Shown: positions 9,801-18,660 of the stretch, in pieces
How positions within the stretch are numbered: the stretch's first letter is position 1
How the letters are laid out: each line of letters starts with the position of its first letter
Assembly (NCBI GenBank): GCA_051294375.1
Contig: CM119266.1
Span: forward strand, 19,355,657 to 19,419,656
Length of the DNA: 64,000 nt
Reading direction: 5' to 3'
From: Paraspadella gotoi
Taxonomy: Eukaryota > Animalia > Chaetognatha
Translations under genes and position numbers: made by a program
Notes under the pieces: model-generated
The model's input: only the letters and a program-made list of their open reading frames with translations
What the model was told of the DNA's origin: nothing
Database searches by the model: none

Positions 9801-12800
9801 GAGGTCTAATGTAGGTAAACGCAACAACTTGGTATGATCACGACAAAAATACTATTAGCCTATTCGAGTTTTCGATTCATTAATGCCGCAAATGACCGCG
9901 TTCTCTCTTCAGGTTTAAGTTACCTTCGGGAGAGGCATCAAATCATTCACCGAGACGTAAAGCCTTCGAATATTCTCGTCAACTCGAGGCAAGTAACTCG
10001 GAAGAATTATTTATTACCAACATGATGTGAGTAAAAACCAGCTATACAGGAAGCACTATTTATATTTACACTTTTTGCATCACATTTTATATTTTTATTC
10101 TGTGATGTTTTTTGGCAAAATTTTGAAAAAGGGTTTCAAAAACCTATTAATCAAAATTACATAAATACAAATCATGCAAGCTTTATGATAAAATTGTTGT
10201 TTTTATCCTAATCATTAAATATAAATATTTTTTATAAAAGGTATTTAGAATTATTTTTAAAACAGCTCATATCAAGCTTTTAATTAATCAGAGGTGAAAT
10301 CAAATTGTGCGACTTTGGCGTCAGCGGTCAGTTAATAGACTCGATGGCCAACTCGTTTGTGGGAACACGATCGTATATGTCCCCGGAGAGGCTTCTCGGT
10401 AAGATTCCGTATTAGAAACGTACTTAAACTTCACATCAAGTATTCAAAGCCTATGGGAATTATATTAATAATATTTCTTTCAAAATCATCGCATGCCCGA
10501 GAAGAATTGTAATATAAGAATAAGAATATATTTTGAAAGAAAGAAATAAATAAATTTAAAAAAAAAGAGAGAAAGAAAGAGACAGAGAAAAAAATAGTGT
10601 ATGGTCTGTTTTAATATTTTACCCCTCTCTCTCTCTCTCTCCCTTCCTTCCTTCCTTTATCTTTTTTGTTTCTCTTTTTAATAAATCTAACTATTTGGAA
10701 TAAATTTGTTTTAAAATTTGTTTTAAAAACACAAGGAACCCATTACTCGGTACAAAGCGACATCTGGTCCATGGGTTTGTCTCTCGTCGAGTTGGCGTTG
10801 GGAAAATATCCAATCCCTCCTCCGGATCCACGAGTCATCGAACGGATCTTCAACGCAAGCGACGGCGCCATCGAAGTATCGCCGAGACCGAAGAACGCGG
10901 CGCTCCTTTTCGAAACCGTCAAATATACAGGCATGACAATATGCCAAATGCCAAAATCCCCAATTTATAATGGCTTTCTTGAAACTGGAAATTCCAATTT
11001 ACTTCTTATGTAAAATCATTATAAATGTTCTATGGCAACATCTGGGTTGCCTGTGATGCCCATTGGATGGGGCATATCACTGTTGGCTTTGGGGGCTTCC
11101 GACCTTCAGAGACGCGGTTACCCTAGGACGGTCTCGCTTTGCCAACGCAGAGAGTAGTCGTTAGGACTGTGGAATGTGGATGGAACGCAACGTCAGGGAN
11201 NNNNNNNNNNNNNNNNNNNNNNNNNNNNNNNNNNNNNNNNNNNNNNNNNNNNNNNNNNNNNNNNNNNNNNNNNNNNNNNNNNNNNNNNNNNNNNNNNNNN
11301 NNNNNNNNNNNNNNNNNNNNNNNNNNNNNNNNNNNNNNNNNNNNNNNNNNNNNNNNNNNNNNNNNNNNNNNNNNNNNNNNNNNNNNNNNNNNNNNNNNNN
11401 NNNNNNNNNNNNNNNNNNNNNNNNNNNNNNNNNNNNNNNNNNNNNNNNNNNNNNNNNNNNNNNNNNNNNNNNNNNNNNNNNNNNNNNNNNNNNNNNNNNN
11501 NNNNNNNNNNNNNNNNNNNNNNNNNNNNNNNNNNNNNNNNNNNNNNNNNNNNNNNNNNNNNNNNNNNNNNNNNNNNNNNNNNNNNNNNNNNNNNNNNNNN
11601 NNNNNNNNNNNNNNNNNNNNNNNNNNNNNNNNNNNNNNNNNNNNNNNNNNNNNNNNNNNNNNNNNNNNNNNNNNNNNNNNNNNNNNNNNNNNNNNNNNNN
11701 NNNNNNNNNNNNNNNNNNNNNNNNNNNNNNNNNNNNNNNNNNNNNNNNNNNNNNNNNNNNNNNNNNNNNNNNNNNNNNNNNNNNNNNNNNNNNNNNNNNN
11801 NNNNNNNNNNNNNNNNNNNNNNNNNNNNNNNNNNNNNNNNNNNNNNNNNNNNNNNNNNNNNNNNNNNNNNNNNNNNNNNNNNNNNNNNNNNNNNNNNNNN
11901 NNNNNNNNNNNNNNNNNNNNNNNNNNNNNNNNNNNNNNNNNNNNNNNNNNNNNNNNNNNNNNNNNNNNNNNNNNNNNNNNNNNNNNNNNNNNNNNNNNNN
12001 NNNNNNNNNNNNNNNNNNNNNNNNNNNNNNNNNNNNNNNNNNNNNNNNNNNNNNNNNNNNNNNNNNNNNNNNNNNNNNNNNNNNNNNTGAGAGAGTTCAT
12101 CGCTGACGCGATTCACAATCATAAATTTACGCGTAGCAAACTTGTAAAAATGAATAAGAACCACTCCCACAAACTGGAAAACTAACGGTAACACTAACTG
12201 GCATTAAAAATTAACAAATGTTCATTTGTCTAGGTCATTTTGAGTCTTCCGAGTTTTCTTCAACTTTCTTTCAAGCAGAGCTTGTCTCACTTCAGCCATT
12301 TTAGATTTCGTAGAGTGATTTTCTTGAATGACGTTAGAAAGTTTTTCCGAAAACGCGAAAGCCGTGCCGCGTGAAGATTGAGACGAACTAGATCGTGACG
12401 ATTTGTCTTTTCGGCTGCGTGAAGTCGAACTCGAATCATCTCTGAATCTGTGCTTGGCGAAAGCATAGGACGGCGTGTAGGCTTTGAATCCAGACGCTGC
12501 ATCCTCTTCGTCGTCGCTTTGATACAAACTGCGTCCGGCGTGTATAGAAGCGATAGAGCTCGTCGCTGGAGCCTTTACGATCAAGTCGGTGAGAATTTGG
12601 ACAACAGTGTCTAGCGATTTTCGTGGACGCCCGTCCTCGTCAAGCAGTTCGGGTTTGAGTTTGCCCGTAAAAGTCCCACCGAAAACTCCCGTTCGGTGGT
12701 TGTGAAAAGTCCCGATGGCCGCAGTTTCTTTTACCTTGTGATTACTGTGATTACTCCGCGTCGAGTGAGATTGACTGTGATGAGAGTGGGGAATAATCGG

Positions 12801-18660: not shown

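Follow-up and report, generated by a model that had tools for sequence, protein, structure and literature searches.

A transcribed midnolin gene of Paraspadella gotoi with an FHA domain between its Catch halves, nested in an intron of MEK1/2

In a stretch of 64,000 nucleotides (nt) from the chaetognath Paraspadella gotoi (GenBank assembly GCA_051294375.1, contig CM119266.1, positions 19,355,657 to 19,419,656 of the forward strand; referred to as the window, with coordinates counted from its first letter), we found a midnolin gene that carries an FHA domain between the two halves of its Catch domain. Its open reading frame (ORF), P0001, lies on the minus strand and runs from an ATG at 16364 to a stop at 12222, encoding 1,380 amino acids (aa). 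The ORF is confirmed as real and not an assembly artefact, and the gene is transcribed as one continuous spliced message. As far as sequence can tell, P0001 passes every test for a midnolin and for an FHA domain, and this domain architecture is apparently undescribed. Tentatively, and with slightly less than even confidence, we propose that P0001 may be a working ubiquitin-independent proteasome adaptor in which the FHA domain serves as a long-reach phosphothreonine (pThr) binding second site near the protein's own Catch groove, raising avidity and biasing the choice of substrates.

The ORF is covered at an identity of at least 99% by four public sequencing runs from three studies. In two of these, X9 (study P3) and X3 (study P2), GT-AG introns are skipped at the 5' leader of the midnolin gene and in neighbouring genes, and the depth is zero in the bins lying wholly within the intron of the 5' untranslated region. 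None of the run records, those of X9 and X3 included, is labelled as RNA, and these two runs were taken as RNA because of this behaviour. Each of the two runs yields one contig over 12100-16370 with no joint within the ORF, and the X9 contig, 4,514 nt in length, includes the spliced 5' exon as well. The coding part of the gene is one exon without an intron, and an in-frame stop lies in the leader upstream of the ATG. The first-pass annotation of this DNA had left a continuous transcript to be confirmed, and the spliced short-read contigs of both runs keep the central region of the gene; minor isoforms may nevertheless exist, since rare forms would not show in contigs of this kind. X10 and X11, two runs from other organisms in the study of X9, leave the ORF uncovered at 80% likeness, which is no evidence of absence. 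Compared with the window, the runs carry 14 single-nucleotide polymorphisms (SNPs) and one in-frame 3-nt insertion, none of them in a domain; four of the SNPs, at 13056-13223, lie within or adjoin a tandem repeat. The features of the gene are as follows.

12222-16364, minus strand: coding sequence of the midnolin with an FHA domain (P0001), 1,380 aa; an ORF that one spliced contig each of X9 and X3 covers from end to end
17215-17396, minus strand: 5' untranslated exon of 182 nt, spliced to 16370 across an 844-nt GT-AG intron; from splice joints
17397-17426, minus strand: part of an alternative upstream 5' exon, donor 17396, with joints to 16370 and 17330 in X3; from splice joints
15780-16016, minus strand: midnolin-type ubiquitin-like domain (UBL), residues 117-195; from the human midnolin match, profile and model
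15630-15767, minus strand: Catch1, residues 200-245; from the profile (32.2 bits) and a model block with a confidence score (pLDDT) of 84-94
14013-14345, minus strand: FHA domain, residues 674-784 (Pfam core 699-767); from Pfam, model, Foldseek and residue signature
14256-14258, 14214-14216, 14205-14207 and 14142-14144, minus strand: codons of the FHA pocket residues R703, S717, H720 and N741, respectively
13215-13410, minus strand: degenerate 27/54-nt tandem repeat encoding 9/18-aa units rich in Ala, Pro, Leu, Gln and Glu, in the second tether of the FHA domain; from repeat analysis
12576-12731, minus strand: Catch2, residues 1212-1263; from the human midnolin match, profile (52.3 bits) and model
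12243-12347, minus strand: C-terminal helix (C-helix), Rpn1-binding by human analogy, with a basic end resembling a nuclear localisation signal (NLS); from the profile

The leader at 17215-17426 (minus strand) undergoes alternative 5' splicing, with three joints in X3, and its 182-nt exon holds one upstream ATG.

Human midnolin (PDB) matches residues 111-245, covering the UBL and Catch1 (domain i-E-value 1.5e-15), and residues 1205-1263, covering Catch2 (5e-8). Profiles built from relatives with the query excluded gave 47.3 bits for the UBL (residues 120-190), 32.2 bits for Catch1 (203-243) and 52.3 bits for Catch2 (1215-1261), and the C-helix (1347-1372) scored 12.9 bits with an E-value of 3.4e-6, as a single comparison with a profile of 58 relatives. 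The first-pass annotation had placed all midnolin modules in order in one ORF, and these matches bear it out, the coordinates agreeing within about 20 nt. Thus, the N-terminal arrangement of a midnolin (UBL, short linker, Catch1) is present, and both parts of the bipartite Catch follow each other in order. With midnolin (human MIDN; Drosophila Stuxnet), P0001 has in common the order UBL, Catch1, loop, Catch2 and C-helix/NLS as well as the GxFxG zipper, the UBL tail and the helix core.

The UBL aligned with that of human midnolin (9bui_y, VIA) with a Z-score of 13.1 and a root-mean-square deviation (rmsd) of 1.9 over 78 residues, and its tail reads L186-P187-S-L189-E-T191-G, compared to V99-P100-T-V102-E-A104-G in the Rpn11-binding tail of the human protein. 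Identity at strongly conserved columns is 11 of 18 in Catch1 and 14 of 22 in Catch2. Both GxFxG registers are retained in the Catch2 motif G1226-V-F-G-G1230-T-F1232-T-G1234, where the columns of the zipper residues G1230, F1232 and G1234 hardly vary (conserved in 63, 64 and 65 of 65 relatives, respectively). The C-helix retains E1348-N1349, and its core consists of M1356/V1359/A1362/L1363 in place of human V392/L395/L398/L399, two of the positions being smaller than usual. In the predicted model of residues 111-1310 (1,200 residues), the confident blocks are the UBL, Catch1 and Catch2. Foldseek and the first VIA run on this long model returned lists filled by ubiquitin-like matches. Against the human UBL and Catch structure 9wbg_f, 183 of 196 residues were aligned over model positions 5-1159, with a Z-score of 12.3 and an rmsd of 9.6; the alignment takes in both Catch halves and agrees, indirectly, with their closure in the predicted structure. 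Elsewhere within the 64-kb window, no other midnolin or FHA piece was found.

The Pfam FHA family PF00498 matches residues 699-767 with 54.6 bits (cut-off 20.7) and an E-value of 1.5e-14. When the whole protein was scanned with Pfam at E-values up to 1, only FHA and an FHA-like YscD model were reported, and no RING or other ligase domain. The structure predicted for the FHA region is a beta sandwich, with an average pLDDT of 78 and values of at least 90 in 73 of 142 residues, and RNF8, CEP170 and other FHA domains headed the Foldseek matches (best E-value 4.5e-8), so the fold assumed by the first-pass annotation is the one predicted. Its reading of the GR, SxxH and N-x-T signature holds as well: G702, R703, S717, H720, N741 and T743 are all present, the usual N-G-T being N-K-T here. 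Five residues of FHA domains, Gly, Arg, Ser, His and Asn, are given as conserved in PMC4037201, and on the strength of these residues the predicted pThr pocket of the midnolin FHA has an intact signature. The closest pairwise matches of the domain are distant, the top ones being about 35-40% identical. In the scores against FHA families, Vps64, RNF8, CEP170 and SLMAP fall within 2 bits of each other, with SLMAP first when a two-sequence profile is used.

Catch1 and Catch2 are separated by 971 aa, in agreement with the distance of about 970 aa noted earlier, and this is the longest such distance seen. Stretches of 428 and 427 residues separate the FHA domain from Catch1 and Catch2. The loop of human midnolin has 111 aa, and the loop of P0001, unlike the 140 midnolin-like proteins listed below and 79 metagenome loci, holds a folded FHA domain. 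The first-pass annotation had contrasted the loop with a vertebrate linker of about 100 residues; this contrast stands for the human protein but not for midnolins at large, since the loops of 115 relatives have a median length of 158 aa and range from 14 to 710 aa, with the maximum in a mosquito. A long Catch loop alone is therefore ordinary in invertebrates and less odd than the vertebrate comparison implies. The loop of P0001 contains 13-18% Ser, TP sites at T325 and T490 and TQ sites at T339, T514 and T1058.

The rarity of the architecture was assessed by scoring residues 111-1310 against 1.84 billion cluster representatives (50% identity clusters), which gave 300 matches at E-values of at most 0.001. 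The best 150 of the 300 matches comprised 140 midnolin-like proteins, nine unrelated FHA proteins and one protein, P0117, with both a UBL and an FHA domain. None of these 140 midnolin-like proteins contains an FHA domain (Pfam on 79 + 61, local FHA profile), nor does any of 79 metagenome loci with Catch2, translated in six frames; many of these loci are redundant, and 42 of them have Catch1 and Catch2 in one frame. Among 30 proteins looked up by name were midnolins of insects, spiders, a tick, an annelid, a nemertean, molluscs, a starfish, a hemichordate, an amphioxus and a tunicate. In the literature searched, the combination of midnolin and FHA was absent, subscription journals being largely outside that search and orthologue supplements of structure papers being a place that could include long-loop orthologues. 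By these searches, a midnolin with an FHA domain is, as the first-pass annotation had supposed, not a common annotated architecture. Rare cases can still hide, because the representatives were clustered at 50% identity and 150 weaker matches lie outside the best 150. A word-indexed homologue search gave 0 of 7,987 candidates with the whole ORF and 0 of 254 with the UBL and Catch1, and these blanks weigh little because long mosquito midnolins were missed likewise. A metagenome scan for a close relative returned 35 stretches, of which none was confirmed.

P0117 is a 430-aa singleton from an ENA assembly that has in common with P0001 a midnolin-type UBL, a Catch1-like stretch and an FHA domain. 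Its UBL scored 46.7 bits, and the match to human midnolin extends into the Catch1 region (residues 24-138), where a Catch1-like stretch was aligned by both MAFFT and phmmer; this stretch gave no score for Catch1 alone and is degenerate. It is followed by the FHA domain (Pfam E-value 1.4e-6), whose best match among 23 FHA domains is that of P0001 (94, compared to 78 for the next), with common motifs around the pocket loops. By the UBL and Catch1 only, P0001 ranks no higher than 14th of 89 for P0117, so that a common origin of the two proteins is no more than suggested. P0117 suggests that the fusion of UBL, Catch1 and FHA is older than one species. P0117 may be a truncated gene call. A homologue search with P0117 found itself alone among 3,329 candidates, and Atlas searches with P0117 and P0061 gave no match that reached 0.9 and no cluster combining midnolin with FHA.

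In the Atlas search with P0117, bacterial (Chloroflexota) clusters with FHA and the ubiquitin-like YukD appeared at 0.85; this is no more than a lead, the combination of FHA with a ubiquitin fold having probably arisen by convergence. P0061, also an ENA singleton, is a divergent midnolin fragment that resembles P0001 in a few UBL motifs and ranks it 28th of 89. Its last residues resemble what we take to be sequencing-adapter read-through; the record is probably cut and hence uninformative on the presence of an FHA domain. In a quick tree of 90 UBL and Catch1 segments, P0001, P0117 and P0061 are all long branches of unsure placement.

The first-pass annotation mentioned neither P0117 nor the genomic seat of the gene, which is an intron of the MEK1/2 (MAP2K1/2) gene (7420-19950, plus strand). 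The midnolin gene, with its leader reaching to 17426, is placed antisense within this intron because MEK exons on the plus strand flank it on both sides.

10735-10893, plus strand: MEK1/2 exon, human MEK1 residues 234-292 (E-value 3e-18)
18044-18660, plus strand: last two coding exons of MEK1/2 (18044-18156 and 18514-18660), human MEK1 residues ~311-393 (E-value 1e-13; 0.002 to dSOR1)

The last two exons are spliced in both X9 and X3, and the MEK contig of X9 has 1,109 nt more upstream of 18041 that lie off 12100-22000, which is what splicing of earlier MEK exons over the nested gene would produce. About 20 MEK residues (human ~293-311) are unplaced and may fall within an 888-nt gap of Ns at 11200-12087, just downstream of the midnolin ORF. 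MEK exons were found beside a midnolin at none of the 79 metagenome loci, only seven of which are longer than 6 kb, and Catch2 is split or partial, as by an intron, in 14 of the 79. Compared with its midnolin relatives, P0001 stands apart in its intronless coding region, in being nested in a MEK1/2 intron and in being more diverged than most. The lack of introns in the coding part, the nested antisense position and the long branch together suggest a retrocopy or a loss of introns.

Within a MEK intron, an element of about 240 nt occurs twice in tandem with a spacing of about 320 nt (8914-9474), and a partial third copy lies in another intron (18350-18446). The third copy has a very high contig depth, and the element is probably a dispersed repeat. 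Rfam gave no matches in the window, this element included. Tail-to-tail with MEK1/2 are the 3' exons of an integrin beta gene (20021-21885 and beyond, minus strand), with Pfam Integrin_b_cyt at 20458-20640; these exons are spliced in X9 and X3. Further along are a BTB-domain protein (37406-39170, minus strand) with a possible MATH-like part upstream, a mitochondrial carrier of the ADP/ATP-translocase type (41912-42982, minus strand), a PAP2 phosphatase (46456-47658, plus strand), a trypsin-like protease (58091-58654, plus strand) and a septin (59516-63046, minus strand).

The proposed mode of action of P0001 is modeled on human midnolin, as described in the papers cited. The human C-helix binds Rpn1 and the UBL tail binds Rpn11, and the Catch domain is located above the ATPase ring, where a beta-strand degron is taken via the GxFxG zipper (10.1101/2025.02.22.639686; PMC13031973; PMC12888917). 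Human Catch1 and Catch2 associate even as separate proteins, and the 111-aa Catch loop is largely dispensable (PMC10617673). A foreign binder replacing Catch suffices for degradation (PMC12888917; PMC13079998), and degradation also reaches targets bound in trans (PMC12888917). The zipper, UBL-tail and helix residues shown to be needed in these papers appear, from the alignments, to be mostly kept in P0001. By analogy, P0001 would dock on the proteasome with its C-helix on Rpn1 and its UBL tail on Rpn11, and its Catch1 and Catch2 would assemble over the ATPase ring, where they would take hold of a beta-strand degron. Once Catch is closed, the FHA domain would be held at the tip of the loop on two disordered tethers of about 430 residues, from where it could keep pThr-marked nuclear proteins near the Catch groove and raise the avidity for proteins with both a pThr and a Catch degron, or for their partners.

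Catch and not the FHA domain would still feed the pore. Because the GxFxG zipper is kept, substrates should enter Catch without phosphorylation, and because of the long tethers the FHA domain would not be positioned over the ATPase pore. Degradation would accordingly be biased toward phosphorylated targets rather than strictly dependent on phosphorylation, and 'phosphorylation-dependent', as the first-pass annotation had put it, is probably too strong a wording. The long-reach reading is plausible because engineered binders and trans-bound targets are degraded. In MidTAC degraders, as described in PMC12888917, a binder placed between the midnolin UBL and C-helix directs ubiquitin-independent degradation; P0001 has in common with them a foreign domain, here a putative binder, at this position. 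The engineered binder replaces Catch and sits on a 15-residue linker, whereas P0001 keeps Catch and has a natural putative phospho-reader on long tethers.

Several observations weigh against this proposal. FHA domains often serve localisation. In the C-helix, the position of human L395 is occupied by Val, which is absent in 58 relatives, and that of L398 by Ala, and overall P0001 is identical at no more than 36 of the 54 strongly conserved columns. The branch of P0001 in the quick tree measures 1.31, compared to a median of 0.2. Support for Catch closure is indirect because of the rmsd of 9.6 Å. None of the 10 protein-changing variants hits a domain, an absence that falls short of significance (P 0.07 with all domains taken together and 0.43 for the FHA domain alone). 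The homologue and metagenome searches revealed no close relative of P0001 in which conservation of the FHA domain across species could be seen. P0117, in contrast to P0001, has a degenerate pocket: its FHA domain has lost the pocket Arg, Ser, His and Asn, its UBL tail is changed, and Catch2 and the C-helix were not detected in it. The fusion of UBL, Catch1 and FHA can therefore persist without pThr reading. Finally, the engineered binder was linked by 15 residues (PMC12888917), and the FHA domain of P0001 by about 430.

A bolder form of the proposal, which we regard as rather doubtful, is that P0001 is a natural phospho-gated, ubiquitin-independent adaptor. Its FHA domain would single out nuclear proteins with a pThr mark, for example immediate-early factors phosphorylated by ERK, for direct degradation, its seat in MEK would reflect negative feedback on MAPK signalling, and the fusion, in view of P0117, would be an old one in a little-sampled animal lineage. 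Comparably doubtful is the idea that the FHA domain is an address label that binds a phosphorylated scaffold (chromatin, DNA-damage foci or a kinase complex), where an otherwise ordinary midnolin would then accumulate without degrading the phosphoprotein to which it is bound. The FHA domain lies far from the pore and from either Catch half, the intact Catch zipper needs no help in choosing substrates, and the nearest solved FHA domains are those of RNF8, CEP170 and SLMAP/Vps64, which are localisation or scaffold-binding domains. On the other hand, human midnolin degrades indirectly bound targets in trans, so that any tethered partner would come within the reach of Catch if it has a disordered region.

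In a further reading, which is unlikely, the FHA domain would be a passenger, or a surface for interactions that need no phosphate, in the insertion-tolerant loop of a rapidly evolving copy, beside which the animal may have a normal midnolin. Such a role would agree with the dispensable human loop and the variable loops of relatives, with the FHA domain of P0117 that lacks its pocket, and with the long branch of P0001; the intronless, nested and antisense layout fits a retrocopy, given the loci with a split or partial Catch2. However, none of the five pocket residues is lost and the fold is kept, although the flanking sequence has no detectable relatives, and the low identity of the top pairwise matches argues against a fresh copy of a sampled gene. 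More improbable still is autoregulation, in which pThr residues bound by the FHA domain would belong to the Ser/Thr/Pro-rich loop of P0001 itself or of a second copy. Such binding would control the closure of Catch, dimerisation or self-degradation, and MAPK signalling might act upstream of it. The Ser-rich loop with its TP and TQ sites is within reach of the FHA domain and the gene is nested in MEK1/2, but TP and TQ motifs are common in disordered regions, and the nesting may be chance; no MEK exons were seen at the 79 metagenome loci, of which only seven exceed 6 kb. An assembly chimera or a central region that is spliced out is very improbable and largely refuted: a sequence gap lies just downstream and contigs are not single molecules, but four runs of three studies agree with the ORF, and X9 and X3 span it in single contigs without an internal joint while skipping nearby introns.

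FHA-RING ligases such as RNF8, CHFR and Dma1/2 use their FHA domains to couple pThr marks to protein fate. The FHA domain of RNF8 is the top Foldseek match to that of P0001 and is among its top sequence matches. These ligases work with ubiquitin and a RING, whereas P0001 has no RING according to Pfam; hence, P0001 is not a ligase of the RNF8/CHFR type and would act alike without ubiquitin. The proposed phospho-reading lends itself to a direct test, since a distant worm midnolin is reported to function in human MIDN-knockout cells (10.1101/2025.02.22.639686; PMC13031973). P0001 also shows an insertion site for a folded binder that leaves Catch in place, which matters for engineered midnolin degraders that could target the phosphorylated form only. 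Human midnolin has been described as selecting its substrates by the beta-strand degron alone. If our proposal is true, P0001 would do without ubiquitin what FHA-RING and phosphodegron-reading ligases do with it, and would show that evolution can add a signal-dependent layer of selection to ubiquitin-free degradation.

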